From positions 316,442-380,441 of the forward strand of contig DAORJK010000002.1 in assembly GCA_035438985.1 (NCBI GenBank): a DNA stretch of 64,000 nt, written 5' to 3'. Position numbers and translations under genes: made by a program. Positions 2,730 to 31,273 of this stretch are shown piece by piece. The first letter of the stretch is position 1; each line of letters opens with the position of its first letter. The notes below the pieces were generated by a model. That model did not search any database, was not told the origin of the DNA, and saw only the letters and a program-made list of their open reading frames with translations. The DNA comes from Bacteroidia bacterium (lineage in GTDB: Bacteria > Bacteroidota > Bacteroidia > UBA4408).

Positions 2730-4079
2730 ATGAAGTCAACAATATTCGCCATAAAAGGAAACAATATTCTTTGTCCGGATGGATTTAAAAAAGGTATACT
2801 GCTAATTGATGGAGCAAAAATAGTTGACTTTGTAGAGCAACTACCGGTGAACTATCAAGGAAAAATAATTGATGCTGCTGAACGAATTGTAATGCCGGGT
2901 TTAATCGATTGCCATGTGCACATCAATGAACCCGGACGCAGCCATTGGGAAGGCTTCGATACAGCCACAAAAGCAGCCGCTGCTGGGGGTATCACAAGCA
3001 TGGTCGAAATGCCGCTAAATGCTACCCCTGTTACAACTAACCGCAAAAATTTTGAAATTAAATTAAAAGCTGCCGCTAATAAATTGCATGTAAATTGTGG
3101 ATTTTGGGGAGGTGTAGTACCCGACAATGAGCATGAATTAAACGATTTACTCGAAAGCGGTGTGTTTGGATTAAAAGCATTTTTAACTCATTCGGGTATC
3201 GATGACTTTCCAAATACAACAGCATCGCATCTTCGCAATGCTTTATTAATTCTTAAGAGGCACAACAAACCATTGCTTGTACATTGTGAATTAGATGAAC
3301 CGCATCAAGATTCTCATCTGCTGGAAAAGTCACCAAACAGTTATCAGGCTTATTTAAAATCGCGACCAAAAAGTTGGGAAAACAAGGCGGTTCAATTAAT
3401 GATTGACTTATGCAGAGAGACGCAGTCAGCCGTACATTTAGTACATATTTCTTCAGCCGAAGCCTTGCCTTTAATTCGTGCAGCTAAGCTTGAAGGACTT
3501 CCGATTACAGCCGAAACTTGTCCACAGTATTTGTGCCTTTTTGCTGAAATGATTCCGGATGGAGCTACACAATATAAATGCGCACCACCCATTCGTGAAA
3601 AGCAAAACAACGAACTTTTGTGGGAAGCACTCAAAGATGGAACGCTTGATTTTATTGTAACCGATCATTCTCCTGCGCCTCCGGATATAAAGGAAACCAG
3701 CTCGGGTAATTTTGCAAAAGCATGGGGAGGTATTGCCGGATTACAATTTCTGTTGCCACTAATTTTTACTGCTGCAAATGAACGTGGATTTACTGTTGAA
3801 CAGCTAGCTAAATTAACTTCCCTGCATGTGGCACAATTTATTGGTATGGCTGAAACTAAAGGAAAGTTGCAAAAAGGATACGATGCAGATATTGTGTGTT
3901 GGGATCCAACAAAAAGTTTTACGGTTAAACAAGACTTAATTCACCACCGTCATAAAATTTGCCCTTATGAAGGAATGAACTTGTTGGGAGTTGTTGAACA
4001 ATGCTGGGTTGCAGGTGAATTGGTTTTCGATAAAGGAAATTTTTTACATTTGGAACAAGGGAAAATACTGCTTAAATAG
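2730..4079 (+). CDS. allB: Allantoinase (cyclic amidohydrolase)
   Basis: 'GLIDCHVHINEPGRSHWEGF' metal-binding motif and overall amidohydrolase/allantoinase layout, set within a purine-catabolism cluster. The ORF track starts at TTG 2700; the ATG at 2730 is more likely. Confidence 0.85.
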   Translation: MKSTIFAIKGNNILCPDGFKKGILLIDGAKIVDFVEQLPVNYQGKIIDAAERIVMPGLIDCHVHINEPGRSHWEGFDTATKAAAAGGITSMVEMPLNATPVTTNRKNFEIKLKAAANKLHVNCGFWGGVVPDNEHELNDLLESGVFGLKAFLTHSGIDDFPNTTASHLRNALLILKRHNKPLLVHCELDEPHQDSHLLEKSPNSYQAYLKSRPKSWENKAVQLMIDLCRETQSAVHLVHISSAEALPLIRAAKLEGLPITAETCPQYLCLFAEMIPDGATQYKCAPPIREKQNNELLWEALKDGTLDFIVTDHSPAPPDIKETSSGNFAKAWGGIAGLQFLLPLIFTAANERGFTVEQLAKLTSLHVAQFIGMAETKGKLQKGYDADIVCWDPTKSFTVKQDLIHHRHKICPYEGMNLLGVVEQCWVAGELVFDKGNFLHLEQGKILLK

Positions 4080-4132
4080 TAATACAGTTATTTTACCGGA
4101 TTGTAATTTAAAAGGGTTTAATTTGAATAAAT

Positions 4133-5164
4133 ATGAAAAGTGTTGTAGAAATAATAAAAGAGCAACCCAAATTTTGTAGCTATACAAATCTCGCTTCGGG
4201 ACGACTTGGAGCTGAAGCGCTGCTTTGCAGCGACGATTTTTTTGCTGAAATGCAAAATTTGGTCTTACCTGGAAGAGGGATATTTATTGCCGATAAATAC
4301 ACTGACCGCGGAAAGTGGATGGATGGATGGGAAAGCCGAAGAAAGCGAACTGAAGGTCACGATTGGTGCATTGTTAAATTGGCAACACATGGAATTATTC
4401 ACGGATTGGATATTGACACTAATTATTTTTTAGGCAACCATCCACCATTTGCTTCTGTCGAAGCTTGTACAATCAACACTAAACTGGAGGCCACATCATT
4501 GAATGATGATTCAATACAGTGGAAAGAAATTTTGCCGAAAGTAGCATTAGACGCTGGTAGCCAAAACTTTTTTGAAATTGCAGATAAATCAATTTATACT
4601 CATTTGAAGTTACACATATATCCGGATGGTGGAGTTGCTAGATTAAAAGTGTATGGGGAGGTTGTGAAAGATTGGAAAAGCCTTCAGCCAGATGAAATTG
4701 TTGATTTAGCCTCAGCACTAAATGGAGCAAAATCGGTGCTTTGCAACGATATGTTTTTTTCGCACATGGATAATTTACTCCTACCCGGACGTGGCATTAA
4801 CATGGGCGATGGTTGGGAAACCAAGCGAAACCGCACTCCCAATAATCGGGATTGGGTTATTGTTCGACTAGCCCATGCAGGTACAATAAAGCAAGTATTA
4901 ATTGATACCTGTCATTTTAAAGGAAATTATCCTGATGCTTGTATGATTGAAGGTACTACTATCAAACCGGAGGATGAATCAAAATTGACATCAACAGAAA
5001 TTAACTGGACTACAGTTTTGCCAAAAGTAAAATTGAATGCCGATTTTGAACATTATTTTGAAAAGGAAGTGGAAAATCATGGCCCTTTTACTCATGTACG
5101 ATTGTCGATTTTTCCTGATGGAGGAATTAGCCGCATGCGGTTATTTGGAAATGCTAAATTGTAG
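4133..5164 (+). CDS. alc: Allantoicase (two tandem allantoicase repeats)
   Basis: Two internal repeats, each with 'LLPGRGI...DGWE(S/T)(R/K)R.R...DW.IV(K/R)LA..G.I..(L/V)(D/I)DT..F.GN(H/Y)P'. Confidence 0.85.
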   Translation: MKSVVEIIKEQPKFCSYTNLASGRLGAEALLCSDDFFAEMQNLVLPGRGIFIADKYTDRGKWMDGWESRRKRTEGHDWCIVKLATHGIIHGLDIDTNYFLGNHPPFASVEACTINTKLEATSLNDDSIQWKEILPKVALDAGSQNFFEIADKSIYTHLKLHIYPDGGVARLKVYGEVVKDWKSLQPDEIVDLASALNGAKSVLCNDMFFSHMDNLLLPGRGINMGDGWETKRNRTPNNRDWVIVRLAHAGTIKQVLIDTCHFKGNYPDACMIEGTTIKPEDESKLTSTEINWTTVLPKVKLNADFEHYFEKEVENHGPFTHVRLSIFPDGGISRMRLFGNAKL

Positions 5165-5166
5165 AA

Positions 5167-5670
5167 ATGAAGTTAGAAGAATTTAATCAGCTATCGAAGG
5201 CAGTTGCAAGTAAGGAATTAGAGAAATGTTGCGGTGCCTCTAAATGGGTGAATTTGCTGGTCGAAAAAAGACCTTTTTTATCGATTGAAGAATTGAAAAT
5301 GGCTTCCGATGAATGCTGGCAGCAATGTGATACAAAAGACTATTTAGAAGCATTTAGTCATCATCCCAAAATAGGAGACCGCTCCTCCCTGGAGCAGAAA
5401 TTTGCCTCTACGCATAAATGGGCATCTAGCGAGCAATCAAGTGTTTTGGATGCTAACACTAATATAATTGATCAACTGGCTAAAGGAAATGAAGCATATG
5501 AACATAAATTTGGATTTATATTTATTGTTTGTGCAACCGGCAAATCAGCAGAAGAAATGCTCGACTTATTGACACAAAGATTAACCAATGCGCCGGAAAA
5601 AGAAATACAGATTGCCGCCGCAGAACAACAAAAAATAACCCATATTCGAATTAATAAACTACTGGAATGA
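5167..5670 (+). CDS. uraD: OHCU decarboxylase (2-oxo-4-hydroxy-4-carboxy-5-ureidoimidazoline decarboxylase)
   Basis: 'CCGASKWV' and 'AFSHHPKIGD' motifs typical of OHCU decarboxylase. Starts 3 nt after the allantoicase stop. Confidence 0.8.
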   Translation: MKLEEFNQLSKAVASKELEKCCGASKWVNLLVEKRPFLSIEELKMASDECWQQCDTKDYLEAFSHHPKIGDRSSLEQKFASTHKWASSEQSSVLDANTNIIDQLAKGNEAYEHKFGFIFIVCATGKSAEEMLDLLTQRLTNAPEKEIQIAAAEQQKITHIRINKLLE

Positions 5671-6005
5671 GTCAACTTACTACCCATATTTTAGATACCT
5701 GTTTAGGAAAACCTGCTGAGGGAATTGAAGTTCATCTCGCACAAAAAAATTCTGGAGAATGGAACGTTATTTCCAAAGGAATTTCAAACAAAGATGGAAG
5801 AATCACTGACTTACTTTCGGACAAAGTAATTTTAGCTCCGGGAATATACCGTCTTCAATTCGAAACTGGCGCATATTTTAAAAGACTTCAAACCACTGCA
5901 TTTTATCCTTCTGTTAGCATTGAATTTGAAATAAGCGATGCATCGCATTACCATGTTCCCTTGTTGTTAAACCCATATGGATATAGCACCTACAGAGGAT
6001 CTTGA
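5667..6005 (+). CDS. uraH: 5-hydroxyisourate hydrolase (transthyretin-like)
   Basis: 'LTTHILDT..GKPAEGI' N-terminus and C-terminal 'YRGS' signature. Overlaps uraD by 4 nt (ATGA). Confidence 0.88.
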   Translation: MSQLTTHILDTCLGKPAEGIEVHLAQKNSGEWNVISKGISNKDGRITDLLSDKVILAPGIYRLQFETGAYFKRLQTTAFYPSVSIEFEISDASHYHVPLLLNPYGYSTYRGS

Positions 6006-6033
6006 TGATTAATAAAAACAAAAAAACAATACG

Positions 6034-7464
6034 ATGAAGTTAACTATTCCTGAAAAAGAAAAGCTTGAGATATTAAATGAATTAAAATTAGCCAACCTTG
6101 CATTTCAAGCTGTGTATCCCGGCGATCTGCCACATCGTCAACCGGTACATACTGTTTATGGTGGAGCTAATTTGTTTAAAAGCGATAGTACCGTTAAAAT
6201 GGGAAAAGCTGCTTTCAAAAGTTTTATCAACAATGCCCCCAATTTCGCCATATTAGCCAAGGTGCTTGAATTAAAGGGTCATGCAAGTTTACCGGATACA
6301 GAAGCAGAGGTAATGGTTTTGGAGGAACGTTTGAATAAATTAAGCGATGAGCAGCGTAAATTAGAGCTGGCATGGCTTCCTTACACGGTTTATAATAAGA
6401 TTAAAGCCAAATTGCAAACTGAAGCAGTGGAAGATTTTAGAATCGATTTTGAGGATGGATTTGGAAATCGTCCAGATGATGAAGAAGATGCTACGGCTGT
6501 TACAGCAGCCACCGAATTAGCAAAAGGAATGGCAGATAAAACGATACCTCCATTTATTGGCATCCGTATTAAGCCATTTACCGAAGATTTAAAGTACCGC
6601 GGCGTTCGAACGCTCGATCTTTTTGTGAGTACCTTATTGGAAAAAAGTGGAGGAATATTGCCTCCAAATTTTGTGGTAATGTTACCCAAAGTTACGATTC
6701 CGGAACAAGTTGAAACCATCGTTAAATTTTTTGAATTACTTGAAAAGGCTCATCAATTGCCCGATGGTTCTCTTAAAATGGAGATGATGGTGGAAGCAAC
6801 ACAAGCAGTTATGGATGCAGATGGGAAAAATCCGCTTCTTAAATTAATTAGAGCCGGAAAGGGACGTTGCATTGCAGCGCATTTTGGAACCTATGATTAT
6901 ACAGCCTCCTGCAATATAACTGCACGTTATCAAACCATGGATCATCCGGTATGCGATTTTGCACATCACATGACCCGTGTTGCTTTGGGAGGTACCGGCA
7001 TCATGCTTAGCGATGGAGCAACCAATGTAATGCCGGTTGGTCCACACCGAGGTGATTCACTCACACTGGAACAGGAAATTGAAAATAGAAGGGTTGTACA
7101 CAACGCTTGGAAACTAGGGTATGGACACACCATGCATTCCTTGATTAATGGATTTTATCAGGGATGGGATTTAAATCCGGCTCAGTTTCCTATGCGCTAT
7201 GCTGCCACTTATACTTTCTTTTTGGAGAGTTATGAAGACGCTGCAGTACGCTTGCGAAATTTTGTTGAAAAGGCTGCTCAGGCAACACTTTCAGGAGATG
7301 TATTTGACGATGCAGCAACCGGACAAGGTTTACTGAATTATTTTTTACGTGCGTTAAATTGTGGTGCCATTACTGAAAAAGAAGTTCTTGCAACAGGTTT
7401 AACCATTGAAGAAATCCGTAGTCGCTCGTTTTATAAAATTTTAGTTGGCAGACGAAAAAAATAA
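6034..7464 (+). CDS. 476-aa CitE/HpcH-HpaI/malate-synthase-superfamily TIM-barrel-like protein; role in the purine cluster unknown
   Basis: Motifs line up with citrate-lyase-beta / malyl-CoA-lyase active-site elements: 'DFRIDFEDGFG' (D-x-E-D metal site), 'IGIRIKP', 'VVMLPKVTIPEQV', 'MEMMVEATQAV', 'GTYDYTAS'. A C-terminal extension of about 150 aa has no recognisable domain. Confidence 0.5.
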   Translation: MKLTIPEKEKLEILNELKLANLAFQAVYPGDLPHRQPVHTVYGGANLFKSDSTVKMGKAAFKSFINNAPNFAILAKVLELKGHASLPDTEAEVMVLEERLNKLSDEQRKLELAWLPYTVYNKIKAKLQTEAVEDFRIDFEDGFGNRPDDEEDATAVTAATELAKGMADKTIPPFIGIRIKPFTEDLKYRGVRTLDLFVSTLLEKSGGILPPNFVVMLPKVTIPEQVETIVKFFELLEKAHQLPDGSLKMEMMVEATQAVMDADGKNPLLKLIRAGKGRCIAAHFGTYDYTASCNITARYQTMDHPVCDFAHHMTRVALGGTGIMLSDGATNVMPVGPHRGDSLTLEQEIENRRVVHNAWKLGYGHTMHSLINGFYQGWDLNPAQFPMRYAATYTFFLESYEDAAVRLRNFVEKAAQATLSGDVFDDAATGQGLLNYFLRALNCGAITEKEVLATGLTIEEIRSRSFYKILVGRRKK

Positions 7465-25835: not shown

Positions 25836-25929
25836 TATAAATGGTTTTTTCTTTCTAGAGTATAAAACGAAAAGCGCTGTCGAATTAGTATCGACAACGC
25901 TTTTTACTAAACTAAACTAAACTAAACAA

Positions 25930-27489
25930 CTATTCTATGGTTAACTTGCCTTGCAGCATTTTATCTGCCGATTGTAGCATTACGAAATATAAGCCGGAAG
26001 CCAAATTTTGCTTATCAAGCATTACCTGATTGCCTCGAATATTATTTTGTTCAAAAACTACACTGCCTTGAGCGTCGATCAGTTTTAAAGTATAAACTTG
26101 ATTTAGAGTATTCGAAAAAGCAATTCTTACCTGCTCTTTCATTGGATTGGGAGAGATATGTAGTTTTTCAGGTGCCGATTGGGCGATTGAATTTATGCCG
26201 AGTAATCCTAAGTCATAAAGTGACTTAACCTGGGATGCAGTAGACTTTAAACCAGCAATGCTGTTGGTGTTATCTTGATGAAAAACATAAGCTACCTCTA
26301 AATCAATTACAGCTCCTGCATTAAAAGTGAAGGGTCCATGTGTACCCAATGAGCGCCAATCGGTACCATTTGAAGCATTTTGGGCCCAATAGAGTCCAGC
26401 AAATGCCGAATCGGAAGATCCCGGGAAAATATAATTTGCAGCTAAAGAACTAGTATCATATTGTAAATGATTCCCATTTTTATCGATAGCGCGCATGTAG
26501 TTATAATAGTTTAAACTGCTGGTAGGATTTCCAAATACACTAAAATCATTTCTATAACCATAGGTATAGTTCAGCGATTTATTTAAAAAAACCAATCCCA
26601 TGGCCGGTGGATTCGGGCCATATCCCATTTGCCCTTCATCCAAGCTGTCAGAATTGTAAGCATACAGCATGTTCTTCAATACGTCAGTTCCAATAAAATC
26701 GTCTATGCTATTTCCAATATCAAAATCATTCCAAAGACTTATGTAAGTTGAATCGTAAGTAATCGCTGAATTATTTTTTATTCGCTGTTCAACAAAAATG
26801 GTATTGTTTAATTCAGGGAAATTAGGTGAGTTAAAAGCATAGGCCATTCCGTGAACTTCAATATCCATAGGCAAACCATTACTTTCAGTATGACTGGTAT
26901 TGTCATTAAATACAAAATAAATGGCTTGGTCTCCTTTGATTGATGGATAATCTCCGGAGTTCGGTTCGTATATACCGTTATTATTCAAATCATAAAAAGG
27001 AGCAAATACTGCACTCCCGTAATTTCCCGGCCAATCCAAAATCTCCTGAGGAATTGTAAATCCAACAGTAGTATTGTTTGCAACAAAATTGTCAATGACA
27101 CTTTGGTTAATTTTCCATACTTTATTCATGTTTGCAGAAACAGCCATGTTCACCTTGGGGCCTGCAACAAAATCATTCCCAGTTTGTTTGTAGGTTTGAC
27201 AAGCAGTATGCAGACTTCCTCCCGGGTCAATTCCTCCAATCCAAAGCCCACTTGCAAATACTGAATTTTTACCGCTTCCTGCCGGCACTTCAAAACCAGG
27301 CTCCGATATATATACCACATTTCCAAGTTGAGTATGCTTATCAAATAAGGCTCCATCAGAGTTTACCGTAGCGCTAACATTGTTGATGTCTAAAACAGCA
27401 CTGGCGGGTAATAGTTGTGCATGAGTAGAAAGCGATTGAAAAATTATAGAAACAAAAGCTATTGAAATTGATAGGTAGTGTGTTTTCAT
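25930..27489 (-). CDS. T9SS-secreted hypothetical protein (signal peptide plus C-terminal T9SS sorting domain)
   Basis: Signal peptide 'MKTHYLSISIAFVSIIFQSLSTHAQ' and a C-terminal 'ISPNPMKEQVRIAF...GLYFVMLQSADKMLQGKLTIE' sorting domain. N/S/T-rich, with many N-x-S/T sites. Confidence 0.75.
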   Translation of the reverse strand: MKTHYLSISIAFVSIIFQSLSTHAQLLPASAVLDINNVSATVNSDGALFDKHTQLGNVVYISEPGFEVPAGSGKNSVFASGLWIGGIDPGGSLHTACQTYKQTGNDFVAGPKVNMAVSANMNKVWKINQSVIDNFVANNTTVGFTIPQEILDWPGNYGSAVFAPFYDLNNNGIYEPNSGDYPSIKGDQAIYFVFNDNTSHTESNGLPMDIEVHGMAYAFNSPNFPELNNTIFVEQRIKNNSAITYDSTYISLWNDFDIGNSIDDFIGTDVLKNMLYAYNSDSLDEGQMGYGPNPPAMGLVFLNKSLNYTYGYRNDFSVFGNPTSSLNYYNYMRAIDKNGNHLQYDTSSLAANYIFPGSSDSAFAGLYWAQNASNGTDWRSLGTHGPFTFNAGAVIDLEVAYVFHQDNTNSIAGLKSTASQVKSLYDLGLLGINSIAQSAPEKLHISPNPMKEQVRIAFSNTLNQVYTLKLIDAQGSVVFEQNNIRGNQVMLDKQNLASGLYFVMLQSADKMLQGKLTIE

Positions 27490-27572
27490 GTTGTAGTTTT
27501 AAATGAATACTGAATTAATTTTTCGACGTCGTATATACATGACATATAACACACACAATACGTTGCCTGAAC

Positions 27573-29072
27573 TTATTTTTTTGAATGAATATAATACGCT
27601 ATTCCTGCATGTATTCCGCACTTTGTCCAATTTTGTTTTAGCGCATAGTTGCTTGAAAATACAGAACTTGGATTGGTTTGGTAATAGGGTGAAATAGTTA
27701 ATGCAAAGCTTTTAGTTATTTCATAGGATGCATTTATCCCTATCATGTATCCGATGCCGGTTAGGTTTTTGTAATTATCTCGACTTAATTTAGTATCCAG
27801 CTCAGTATAATTTTGAGGATTAATTTCTGTTCCTTTTTTAGTAAACAAACAATTAATACGCAATCCAGCATACACTCCTAAGCGAATTTTTGTCAATAAA
27901 AAGTCATATCCGGCAAGTAACGGAATATCTATAAGCGTATACTGCATGTTGCTGGTAACTTGATTCTTAGTGTTACTTATTATAACTAAGGTGTCGTAAT
28001 TTTTAATTACTAAGGGTGCATTAAATGGGTCTTGCAATGAATAAAAAGAAGAAACCGAATCAATGTATAGTTCTTTAATTTCTTGTTCATGTTGTAAACT
28101 ATATTTTCGGCTAAGCGATGTACCGCTAAATCCTACTTTTAAATAAGCCCTTTTCGTAAAATAGTAACTCAACAATACTTCTCCACTAAAGGCTCTTTGA
28201 TACATCGTGCTACTATCAATACGTGCTGAAAAACCCGGAATACCAACATCCCTATTTTTAATGAAATAATAATCCGGACCCAACAAGGCTTCAATTCGAA
28301 ATTTTGTTGATTTAGCTATTTCTATGGGCGACGCTACAATTGCCGTTGGAAGCATGTTTTCAGTGATCTTGTGTCGGTTGGTATCCAATACTGAAATGGA
28401 CCTAATACTGCTATCTTCGGGTGATTTATCAATTGGAGACTGTTTCGTATCCACTTTCATTTGAGGAGTGTCAACAGGAGTAGTTACCGGTGAAAAAGGC
28501 TGGCTCGTTACTTCTACAGTAGGACTTGATTTCTCAGGATCTTTGAGGTTATCAGAGTGAAGTGTAACTGTTGATGATAGAAGTATTTCCGGCAATCCTT
28601 CTAATGTTTTACTATTGTTTGAAGGTTCAACTGAACTGGAAGGTAAATCAGACGACTGGCCATCGGCTGAATTTTTTGTTGAATTTGCGAATGCGAGGCT
28701 TACATTTTTAGCAGTTCCATGAATAGTCTTGCTTTGCACTTTGCCGAAATTTTTGTGTGAATCAGAATGTTTTTTAAAGGTGGGTTTTTCGCTTATCGCT
28801 GAGTTATTGTTATTGATCGGTTGGGAGGTACTTAGAGCAGAAGTTACGGGTGAAGTATGTGATGTATTACAAAAGGGCAATGCCAAAAGCAACATCACCA
28901 GTAAATCGGCAAACGCAAACCAGGCTAGTTTAGAACGATCCAAATTAGTACCCAACTCGGGCTTTTGCAATTTAGTTTCAATTTTATTCCATAAATCAGC
29001 AGGTACTTCCTCAGAGTAGGAGTACAATTTATTTCTGATTTTATTTTCCAAATTATCCCTTTCTTCTTTCAT
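27573..29072 (-). CDS. Membrane protein with a short cytoplasmic N-terminus, one TM, an S/T/P-rich linker and a C-terminal outer-membrane beta-barrel-like domain; candidate anti-sigma partner of the upstream ECF sigma
   Basis: Its start overlaps the ECF sigma gene stop by 4 nt. TM 'LAWFAFADLLVMLLLALPF', a low-complexity linker of about 180 aa, and a C-terminal ~240 aa with alternating beta-strand pattern and aromatic-rich ends (OMP_b-brl_2/PorT-like). Confidence 0.6.
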   Translation of the reverse strand: MKEERDNLENKIRNKLYSYSEEVPADLWNKIETKLQKPELGTNLDRSKLAWFAFADLLVMLLLALPFCNTSHTSPVTSALSTSQPINNNNSAISEKPTFKKHSDSHKNFGKVQSKTIHGTAKNVSLAFANSTKNSADGQSSDLPSSSVEPSNNSKTLEGLPEILLSSTVTLHSDNLKDPEKSSPTVEVTSQPFSPVTTPVDTPQMKVDTKQSPIDKSPEDSSIRSISVLDTNRHKITENMLPTAIVASPIEIAKSTKFRIEALLGPDYYFIKNRDVGIPGFSARIDSSTMYQRAFSGEVLLSYYFTKRAYLKVGFSGTSLSRKYSLQHEQEIKELYIDSVSSFYSLQDPFNAPLVIKNYDTLVIISNTKNQVTSNMQYTLIDIPLLAGYDFLLTKIRLGVYAGLRINCLFTKKGTEINPQNYTELDTKLSRDNYKNLTGIGYMIGINASYEITKSFALTISPYYQTNPSSVFSSNYALKQNWTKCGIHAGIAYYIHSKK

Positions 29073-29659
29073 GCGAATGTAATTTCACTTTGTTTTAACT
29101 TCTCTTGAAGTGCAGTTTTGGCCTTCGAAAATTGCGAACGAGAAGTTCCTTCATTAATTTTTAACAAATCGGCAATTTCTTTATGACTGTAACCTTCAAT
29201 AACATATAGATTAAAAACAGTTTTGTATCCATCGGGTAAACTGTCAATTAGCTGCAGTAAGTCTTTTTCACTGAGGCGATCAATGGCTGAGGCATCTGAG
29301 TTGTTTAATTTAACCTCACTTAATTCAACCTGATTATACTGAGCAGGTGGCATTCTGTAACTTGATAATGCGGTGTTCACCATAATTCTTCGTATCCAAC
29401 CTTCAAATGCCCCTTGGTGGCGAAAAGTAGAAATAGATTTAAAAATTTTGATGAATCCTTCTTGAAGCAAATCTTCTGCAGGAGCATGATTGCTCTCATA
29501 ACGTCGACAAACTGAGAGCATTTTACCGGCATACTTTTCAAAAAGTGCCCGCTGACAATGCCTGTCATTTGCTATACAACCTCTAATTAGCTCTTCGTCG
29601 GTATACACTATACGATAGGATATGCATGAATTAAGAAGTAAGATAGTTTTTTTTAGCAA
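29069..29659 (-). CDS. ECF-type RNA polymerase sigma-70 family factor
   Basis: Region 2 ('LLQEGFIKIFKSISTFRHQGAFEGWIRRIMVNTAL') and region 4 HTH ('YKTVFNLYVIEGYSHKEIADLLKINEGTSRSQFSKAKTALQ'). Confidence 0.85.
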   Translation of the reverse strand: MLKKTILLLNSCISYRIVYTDEELIRGCIANDRHCQRALFEKYAGKMLSVCRRYESNHAPAEDLLQEGFIKIFKSISTFRHQGAFEGWIRRIMVNTALSSYRMPPAQYNQVELSEVKLNNSDASAIDRLSEKDLLQLIDSLPDGYKTVFNLYVIEGYSHKEIADLLKINEGTSRSQFSKAKTALQEKLKQSEITFA

Positions 29660-29769
29660 AACGTTGCCTGCCGTAAAAACATTTTTTTCAACTTGTGAAA
29701 AACTACTTTAGAGATTAAATTTTTACTTCTTTAATTAACTTACTTTTGGAACAAAATTTAGTGCTTTAC

Positions 29770-31047: not shown

Positions 31048-31221
31048 ATCCATGCTGTTTGAATTGAAACGGTCTTTATTTTTAACCAAATACCACATCC
31101 AAATAAAATTAGCAATTGTCATAATGATGCTAAAAAGTATATTTGAAGAAGCACCTATTGTTTGTAATGCTGGGAAAATTGACTCAAAAAAATCACCAAT
31201 TCCATGAAATACAGCTGTCAT
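31036..31221 (-). CDS. Possible small (61-aa) membrane protein; low confidence
   Basis: The ORF sits in the purD-downstream gap, on the opposite strand to both neighbours. It has one strongly hydrophobic helix ('ILFSIIMTIANFIWMWYLV'). No other support. Confidence 0.2.
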   Translation of the reverse strand: MTAVFHGIGDFFESIFPALQTIGASSNILFSIIMTIANFIWMWYLVKNKDRFNSNSMDLQK

Positions 31222-31273
31222 AATTTTTTGATTTTAGATTTGTGCAACAAATGTAAAAATAATTTTAAAACTC

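Follow-up and report, generated by a model that had tools for sequence, protein, structure and literature searches.

Extracytoplasmic function (ECF) sigma factors of group ECF21 are restricted to the Bacteroidetes, and their +1 anti-sigma factor carries a single inner-membrane helix and an outer-membrane beta-barrel (Casas-Pastor et al. 2021, 10.1101/2019.12.11.873521). The closest described anti-sigma factor of this kind is Dma1 (BT_4721) of Bacteroides thetaiotaomicron, an OMP_b-brl_2 protein in which a long disordered stretch joins an N-terminal transmembrane region to an 8-stranded barrel (PMC10927553). The first 40 residues of Dma1 suffice to pull down the ECF21 sigma factor Das1 (BT_4720), and the full-length protein is found in membranes while outer membrane vesicles hold only C-terminal fragments (PMC10927553). 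Reo and EcfO of B. fragilis and Phocaeicola vulgatus are orthologues of Dma1 and Das1, and the Dma1 and Reo regulons take in the adjacent nigD gene (PMC10927553, PMC13114119). A second pair, Dma2/Das2 (BT_1558/BT_1559), has been reported only from the genus Bacteroides; when Dma2 is lost, das2 and the three genes that follow dma2 show the strongest induction (PMC13088901). The regulons known so far for these dual membrane-spanning anti-sigma (Dma) factors come from three gut species and comprise genes for NigD lipoproteins and a small number of DUF genes. Here we analyse a locus on a 64,000-nucleotide stretch of DNA from an uncultured Bacteroidia bacterium (contig DAORJK010000002.1; hereafter the window), in which an ECF sigma gene overlaps the gene for a 499-residue membrane protein and is followed by a gene for a 519-residue protein with a type IX secretion system (T9SS) C-terminal domain (CTD). 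We consider it likely that this locus combines a Dma-type/ECF21 sigma pair with the gene that is its main output.

The three open reading frames all lie on the minus strand within 25930-29659. The arrangement agrees with an initial sequence-only reading of the window, which had picked out the three genes and the overlap of the sigma stop codon with the partner start (ATGA). The Dma-like partner gene occupies 27573-29072 (-) and the T9SS cargo gene 25930-27489 (-), with a gap of 83 nt between them and no terminator-like site in the window between the Dma-like stop and the cargo start. An intrinsic terminator-like hairpin at 25870-25904 (-), with a 14 bp stem and a T-run, closes the module 3' of the cargo gene.

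The sigma factor and its membrane-spanning partner

The sigma product matches Sigma70_r2 and r4_2 in Pfam and the general ECF model TIGR02937 in NCBIfam. The mechanically called open reading frame begins with a TTG codon and spans 29069-29659 (-). The most likely start, judged from sequence comparison, is the in-frame GTG at 29608, since gene callers chose the corresponding 179-residue length in four related contigs; the TTG at 29659 falls within a promoter-like element described below. The resulting gene (29069-29608, minus strand) encodes a protein that begins MYTDEELI and shares 42% identity with Das1 of B. thetaiotaomicron over 172 residues (E=5e-47). As a control, a different ECF sigma factor of the same B. 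thetaiotaomicron locus gave 21% identity (E=2e-5). By its likeness to Das1, which is itself stated to be ECF21, the window sigma factor is probably of the ECF21 type.

The partner protein has one Pfam match above cutoff, to the barrel family PF13568 OMP_b-brl_2 (residues 258-464, 33.8 bits against a cutoff of 27), and Dma1 scores 34.8 bits on the same model. FecR, RskA, and zinc-finger (zf-HC2) anti-sigma domains gave no Pfam or NCBIfam match in the partner at E<=1. We built an AlphaFold2 model with a 111-sequence alignment, and hydropathy, Pfam, and the model converge on the layout that the sequence-only reading had sketched, namely a short N-terminus, one transmembrane helix, a linker rich in Ser, Thr, and Pro, and a C-terminal barrel, with neither a FecR nor a zinc-finger domain. 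The predicted cytoplasmic anti-sigma segment comprises residues 1-44 (28941-29072, minus strand) and is identified by homology to Dma1, by a family motif, and by the model, in which helices at residues 2-18 and 27-34 have a predicted local distance difference test score (pLDDT) of about 80. It is followed by a single predicted inner-membrane helix at residues 45-68 (28869-28940, minus strand). Hydropathy places one such helix, and no other, at about residues 47-68 with a peak of 2.23 at residues 49-67, and the modelled helix spans residues 45-68. Five Lys or Arg residues precede the helix and none follow it, which favours an N-in orientation under the positive-inside rule.

Residues 69-257 (28302-28868, minus strand) form the predicted periplasm-spanning tether. 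The model assigns residues 69 to about 250 a pLDDT below 50, in keeping with disorder, and 38% of the linker is Ser, Thr, or Pro. The DNA coding for this segment is 70% and 57% identical in nucleotides to that of relatives, compared with 80-89% for the flanking parts, and it is by far the fastest-evolving DNA of a 12-kb syntenic block. The N-terminus and the barrel are nearly invariant among close relatives.

The C-terminal 250 residues are rich in aromatics and show alternating hydrophobicity. The model places an all-beta domain at residues 258-495 (27588-28301, minus strand) with pLDDT above 90, and DSSP assigns eight long strands (258-275, 289-304, 309-337, 361-393, 396-417, 440-451, 456-470, and 478-495), from which we infer an 8-stranded outer-membrane barrel. 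The third and fourth strands form a long hairpin (residues ~309-393) whose tip carries two further short strands. The values listed for this domain are 17.6 for Legionella porin III, 17.0 for TtoA, 16.9 for NspA, 16.7 for OmpA, and 16.1 for both OmpW and PagL. The membrane and barrel predictions and the AlphaFold2 model, which the sequence-only reading had proposed as checks, therefore gave a confident all-beta barrel and not a soluble periplasmic domain.

We compared the partner with Dma1 using the B. thetaiotaomicron locus (L008), which was retrieved with a 41-nt stretch assembled from overlapping cloning primers in a preprint supplement. In L008 coordinates, NigD2 lies at 3636-4358 (-), Das1 at 4538-5086 on the opposite strand, and Dma1 (419 residues, with a C-terminus that agrees with the primer) at 5095-6354 on the same strand as Das1. 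Residues 3-38 of the partner match residues 2-37 of Dma1 with 39% identity over 36 residues (E=1e-5), and the matched part of Dma1 falls inside the 40-residue segment shown to bind Das1. A profile from 111 relatives of the partner matched the Dma1 barrel with 97% probability (E=6e-11). At E<=1e-3, an exhaustive HMMER search returned 791 Dma-like representatives (50% clusters), 97 of which also pass E<=1e-10. The layout of an N-terminus of 25-130 residues, one transmembrane helix, and a length of at least 380 residues was present in 114 of the 152 top matches examined.

No other short motif of the family is as well conserved as the N-terminus. Its consensus, Phi-D-x-x-Phi-(K/R)-x-K-L-x-x-(Y/H)-x-x-x-V-P-x-x-Phi-W-x-x-I, leads into a K/R-rich stretch and the transmembrane helix; the window protein fits it, and W28 is conserved in at least 90% of the 111 relatives. 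By this homology the N-terminal segment of about 44 residues would bind the cognate sigma factor. An ECF21-type sigma gene, overlapping and paired with the Dma-like gene, is present in every sampled relative that has upstream sequence. The exact partner protein is on record from a 'Bacteroidia bacterium' metagenome-assembled genome, under the name 'outer membrane beta-barrel protein', and its neighbour has a T9SS CTD, in agreement with the Bacteroidota restriction of the group. On homology, the locus is a new, divergent member of the published Dma family. The cross-envelope signalling device suggested by the sequence-only reading gains support from this likeness to Dma1 and Das1. The topology that it had called unusual does appear in the sequence and the model, although it is not new: it has been published for the Dma family and noted for ECF21, experimentally in 2024-26 and computationally in 2019-21 (PMC10927553, PMC13088901, PMC13114119, 10.1101/2019.12.11.873521).

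The window locus and Dma1/Das1 share an ECF21-type sigma factor followed by an anti-sigma factor with one transmembrane helix, a disordered linker, and a PF13568 8-stranded barrel, and the N-terminal segment of about 40 residues that binds the sigma factor in Dma1 is predicted to do so in the window. In both, the regulon includes, or is predicted to include, a neighbouring gene whose product is secreted or at the surface. The proteins differ in length (499 residues in the window, 419 in Dma1), and so do the barrels (about 238 against about 165 residues) owing to the long beta3-beta4 hairpin. Measured from a conserved Gly to a conserved Pro, the beta3-beta4 segment has 59-79 residues throughout the window subfamily, including L092, and, by direct count, 30 residues in Dma1, which MAFFT misaligned. 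The sigma and partner genes overlap (ATGA) in the window, whereas das1 and dma1 are separated by an 8-nt gap. The output gene of the window locus lies on the same strand and encodes a T9SS-sorted beta-supersandwich, whereas that of B. thetaiotaomicron encodes a divergently transcribed NigD lipoprotein. The hosts also differ, Dma1 and Reo belonging to gut Bacteroidales and the window to an uncultured environmental Bacteroidia. The known phenotypes (vesiculation, toxin, or oxygen tolerance) belong to the Dma1 and Reo side of this comparison.

Dma2/Das2 likewise shares the overall architecture, and its logic, in which loss of the anti-sigma factor induces the sigma gene and downstream operon genes, is the one proposed for the window. 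The Dma2 barrel is annotated as PF13505 and that of the window as PF13568, and the genes downstream of dma2 encode DUF4943, DUF4858, and reductase-like proteins where the window has a T9SS cargo (PMC13088901). The ECF21 subgroup neighbourhoods as published include no T9SS-CTD protein, whereas the window has one (10.1101/2019.12.11.873521). Further afield, FecA/FecR/FecI cell-surface signalling relays information from the outer membrane by way of an anti-sigma factor in the inner membrane to an ECF sigma factor, as proposed for the window. In Fec-type systems, however, the outer-membrane TonB-dependent transducer and the FecR-domain anti-sigma factor are separate proteins, while the window would combine both roles in one polypeptide in which no FecR domain was detected.

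Putative promoter elements and conservation of the sigma-Dma-cargo triad

The 10-mer CAGGCAACGT occurs exactly twice in the 64 kb, once upstream of the sigma gene and once upstream of the cargo gene. The first of these copies precedes the sigma GTG by 54 nt; the second precedes the cargo ATG by 72 nt and falls inside the 83-nt gap. At the sigma gene, the putative autoregulated ECF21-type promoter (29640-29670, minus strand) comprises CAGGCAACG, with the -35 element GGCAAC at 29668-29663, an 18-nt spacer, and ATCTT at 29644-29640. The putative ECF21-type cargo promoter (27539-27569, minus strand) also comprises CAGGCAACG, with GGCAAC at 27567-27562, an 18-nt spacer, and GTCAT at 27543-27539. 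The shared motif was established by pattern search and cross-species alignment; a plain MAFFT alignment of the two upstream regions missed it. The predicted ECF21 promoter consists of GCAACC (-35) and CGTCT (-10) (10.1101/2019.12.11.873521), and the window elements agree with this motif. The pattern GGCAAC-N18-RTC was observed three times in the window against 0.57 expected, and three matches were reached in 1 of 100 shuffles. The third match, at 4433-4459 (+), was dismissed as it lies inside an open reading frame.

Related and reference loci used for comparison carry L-numbers; L001 and L002 are close to the window and L005 is more distant. L001 and L002 show no change in either promoter element. 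Identity to these two loci is 88-96% in the two intergenic regions, compared with 85-87% for the whole locus and 57-70% for the linker. Upstream of its cargo gene, L005 keeps AGGCAACG-N17-GTCTT. Pattern matching placed an equivalent element before the sigma gene, at a distance of 40-58 nt, in L010/L048, L013, L025, L086, L091, and L094, and one was recognised by eye in the sigma region of L093, with CTCTT as the -10 variant. In L013, the Dma gene is followed by two terminator hairpins and then by the cargo's own element, AGCAGCGTTT...GCATCTT, and the sigma promoter reads AGCAGCGTTTT...GCATCTA. L091 has GGCAGCG before the sigma gene and AGCAGCG before the cargo gene. The GCAGC variant of the -35 element is thus present at both promoters in two lineages, L013 and L091, as expected if one sigma factor reads both. 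These comparisons support the proposal that a single sigma factor would serve the sigma and cargo promoters.

We also considered whether TATCTT could be a Bacteroidota housekeeping -7 box (TAnnTTTG). This candidate was rejected, since the spacing from TTTG to the box is wrong (about 11 nt) and GTC or CTC stands at the same place in other lineages.

The gene order sigma-Dma-cargo is kept at 71% and 62% identity of the Dma-like protein. It is kept in L005 as well, where the Dma-like protein is 30%, a sigma fragment 74%, and the cargo 64% identical to the window proteins. Among distant Dma relatives (about 20% identity), L091, L093, L094, L095, and L097 have a cargo homologue directly downstream, with 30-45% identity to the window cargo (E 8e-36 to 3e-120). 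The triad is accordingly present in 6 of the 7 evaluable distant loci, L005 included; L096 was left out of this count for its shortness. As in the five loci just named, the Dma-like gene of L010 and of L013 directly follows an ECF sigma gene and directly precedes a cargo homologue. L093 has 0 nt, L094 2 nt, and L010 24 nt between the end of the Dma-like gene and the beginning of the cargo gene, which implies co-transcription in these loci.

Judged by gene order, the sigma, Dma-like, and cargo genes are a conserved three-gene module in many environmental Bacteroidota. The sigma-controlled secreted-cargo module that the sequence-only reading had proposed is borne out to this extent by synteny in distant relatives, operon-like spacing, and a common ECF21-type promoter element. 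The link appears to be undescribed: neither the partnership with one T9SS cargo family nor the ECF21-type promoter before the cargo gene is mentioned in the Dma papers, in the ECF21 context list, or in the results of a literature search on T9SS and anti-sigma barrels.

Several loci show variations on this arrangement. In L025 (2228-4060) and L086 (2255-4057), a T9SS protein of about 600 residues with a type-B CTD (CHU_C, PF13585) is encoded between the Dma and cargo genes, and in L052 (959-4090) a 1043-residue protein takes this place. Besides its triad, L010 carries a further paralogue of the cargo (1248-2795), immediately before the sigma gene. At all evolutionary distances sampled, the anti-sigma factor is much less conserved than the sigma factor and the cargo.

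Two further observations concern the promoter regions. The cargo leader contains a conserved 8-bp palindrome, CGACGTCG, near the predicted start site (27524-27531, minus strand), where it follows the -10-like box at a distance of 7-8 nt. L001 and L002 carry it unchanged, the sigma promoter lacks it, and L005 keeps GACGTCG of it with the same spacing from the -10-like box. The palindrome could be the site of a second regulator or part of the start region. In the das1-nigD2 intergenic region of L008 (4359-4545), the nigD2-ward strand contains TTTTGCAAC-N17-ATCCA, which resembles the window element and is the one match in 187 nt. This GCAAC-N17-ATC element stands before nigD2, a known Das1 regulon gene, and its likeness to the window promoter is only suggestive (roughly p~0.07). 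On the das1 side of the same region, the TATCTTTG box fits the Bacteroides housekeeping -7 consensus.

Proposed mechanism and competing explanations

The working model is as follows. In the resting state, the 179-residue sigma factor would be held at the inner membrane by the two-helix N-terminus of about 44 residues, as in Dma1/Das1 and Reo/EcfO. By homology, one transmembrane helix would anchor the partner in the inner membrane, a disordered tether of about 185 residues would span the periplasm, and the C-terminal barrel would sit in the outer membrane with the long beta-hairpin projecting outward. If the characterised relatives are a guide, perturbation of the outer membrane or a surface cue would lead to proteolysis of the tether and the anti-sigma segment and so free the sigma factor. 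The freed sigma factor, bound to RNA polymerase, would then use GGCAAC-N18-(A/G)TC promoters at its own operon, giving positive autoregulation, and at the adjacent cargo gene. The induced cargo would be exported through Sec and the T9SS to the cell surface or the medium.

Several points weigh against this model or narrow its scope. For this locus, the model draws on inference for sigma binding, presence in both membranes, proteolysis, and use of the promoters. The pairwise match to Dma1 extends only over the N-terminal 36 residues and part of the barrel, a pattern compatible either with Dma1 orthology or with a separate Dma subfamily. The barrel ends in ...AYYIHSKK, without a terminal aromatic residue. 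When the promoter pattern is relaxed to GCAAC-N17-19-[ACG]TC[AT], the window shows no enrichment (6 matches against an expectation of 7.25). The promoter case hence depends on the extended identical sequence, on position and orientation, and on conservation across lineages, and the loose pattern is unusable for predicting further regulon members. On the Dma side, L092 is a sampled relative without a downstream cargo homologue. On the cargo side, we sampled 80 metagenomic loci found from a 9-sequence cargo alignment, 59 of which have enough upstream sequence. A Dma-like gene lies upstream in only 7 of these 59; six of the seven also show the sigma gene, and the other, L052, ends at a contig edge. 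Set against the 6 of 7 loci on the Dma side, this count indicates that the linkage is typical of the window's Dma subfamily and not of the cargo family as a whole.

The cargo-side count and the chance frequency of the loose pattern, together with the 83-nt gap, are what would be expected if the pair were a true Dma/ECF21 pair and the cargo a mere neighbour transcribed from a housekeeping promoter outside the sigma regulon. We regard this as improbable, as the triad is kept where the Dma-like protein has diverged to about 20% identity, L093 and L094 leave a mere 0-2 nt between the Dma-like and cargo genes, the identical 10-mer and, in L013 and L091, the variant -35 element recur at both promoters, and the window lacks a terminator between the two genes. 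The same long-range co-occurrence of sigma, Dma-like, and cargo genes also fits a different role for the cargo, in which it would be held at the surface as part of the sensor, contact the barrel hairpin or report on T9SS traffic, and control sigma release in a feedback loop. Dma1, which has no cargo partner, has the short 30-residue beta3-beta4 segment in place of the 59-79 residues seen here, and conserved ECF neighbours can be regulators as well as targets (10.1101/2019.12.11.873521). The long hairpin is nevertheless also found in L092, which has no cargo, and the characterised Dma1/Reo-type relatives respond to general outer-membrane stress without a cargo-like partner (PMC10927553, PMC13114119). 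We give a sensor role for the cargo a small chance of being correct. The same tentative standing applies to the picture of the triad as a closed surface-sensing circuit, with the supersandwich cargo as both output and ligand or co-sensor of the barrel hairpin.

Two other explanations set aside the Dma relationship or its function. The partner could be an ordinary outer-membrane protein whose hydrophobic segment is only a removed export signal or anchor, the gene overlap being incidental. Its sole Pfam match and its database name are those of a barrel protein, and Dma1 itself is partly seen as C-terminal fragments. Against this, the hydrophobic segment begins only at about residue 45, behind a conserved, structured, and charged N-terminus that is homologous to the Das1-binding segment of Dma1, and the overlap with an ECF21-type sigma gene recurs in every sampled relative with upstream sequence; we find this explanation very hard to sustain. 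The sequence-only reading had suggested an analogy to SigP-type control of T9SS genes in Porphyromonas. SigP of P. gingivalis is an orphan ECF sigma factor that is activated through the PorXY two-component system and controls T9SS machinery genes. Both systems tie an ECF sigma factor to type IX secretion in Bacteroidota, and a T9SS substrate gene is indeed adjacent in the window. The analogy is not supported beyond that, as the window sigma factor is specifically Das1-like, has a co-encoded anti-sigma factor with an overlapping gene and a dedicated trans-envelope architecture, and has a single cargo gene as its apparent target; in none of the loci examined does the conserved module include a gene for a T9SS component. 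This separation from SigP is by description only, and we give a SigP-like regulator of the T9SS machinery next to no credence.

The preferred reading thus remains a Dma-type/ECF21 pair with the cargo as its main output, and the hypothesis that we offer is one of trans-envelope signalling linked to type IX secretion. The window locus sits in a large Dma subfamily of uncultured and metagenomic Bacteroidota that appears anciently and tightly tied to one T9SS cargo family, and the module offers a simple, testable one-gene regulon. The link is a useful lead, yet a difference in regulon is of the sort expected between ECF subgroups, and if the cargo is only an output, the locus is an incremental extension of a known family. 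Were the cargo a ligand or co-sensor of the barrel, the signal to which Dma-type anti-sigma factors respond would have a concrete candidate, and transcription would be tied directly to T9SS traffic or to the state of surface glycans with no need for a TonB-dependent transducer.

The cargo protein and other features of the locus

The cargo protein (25930-27489, minus strand) consists of a signal peptide (residues 1-24), a beta-supersandwich (residues ~25-432), and a type-A CTD (residues 444-519). The C-terminus matches Por_Secre_tail PF18962 (E=1.2e-11) and TIGR04183 at residues 445-518, and its model superposes on the CTDs of mirolase, NucA, and RemA (TMt 0.73-0.83). The sequence-only reading had recognised a secreted protein with a T9SS CTD, and these matches and the signal peptide agree with it; we predict that the cargo is a type-A substrate exported through Sec and the T9SS. 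The N-terminus is hydrophobic, and Q25, at position +1 after the predicted signal peptide, is conserved in at least 90% of 75 cargo-family members. An N-terminal glutamine is common on exported Bacteroidota proteins, and Q25 fits this pattern.

The AlphaFold2 model of the cargo has a pLDDT of 91.5 and a predicted TM-score (pTM) of 0.80, and in it the N-domain is a galactose-mutarotase-like beta-supersandwich. The family comprises 140 matches, nearly all recorded with a T9SS CTD, and some members contain extra Ig-like or PKD modules. Across the 140 matches, no Pfam model covers the N-domain of about 420 residues. A glycan-binding or glycan-active role for the cargo is a reasonable guess. It would give a T9SS cargo family that is so far entirely uncharacterised a candidate function, that of a glycan-related protein at the surface or in the medium. 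Both proteins contain D-(S/T)-(A/I/L/V/M/T) sequons, which we take to be the Bacteroidota O-glycosylation motif. The cargo holds three of them, and the only two of the Dma-like partner, DSV (residues 338-340) and DTL (residues 360-362), flank the tip of the beta3-beta4 hairpin.

Outside the module, the intergenic region between purD and the gene for a 328-residue multi-pass membrane protein (31048-31273) is 94-96.5% identical to its counterparts in L001 and L002. The flanking coding DNA is only 85-90% identical and so less conserved than the intergenic stretch. A search against Rfam matched no RNA family in the window, this region included. At 25905-25929 (-), in the short stretch that separates the cargo stop codon from the terminator hairpin, the sequence tagttGTTTAGTTTAGTTTAGTTTAgtaaaaagcg contains the pentanucleotide run (GTTTA)x4.

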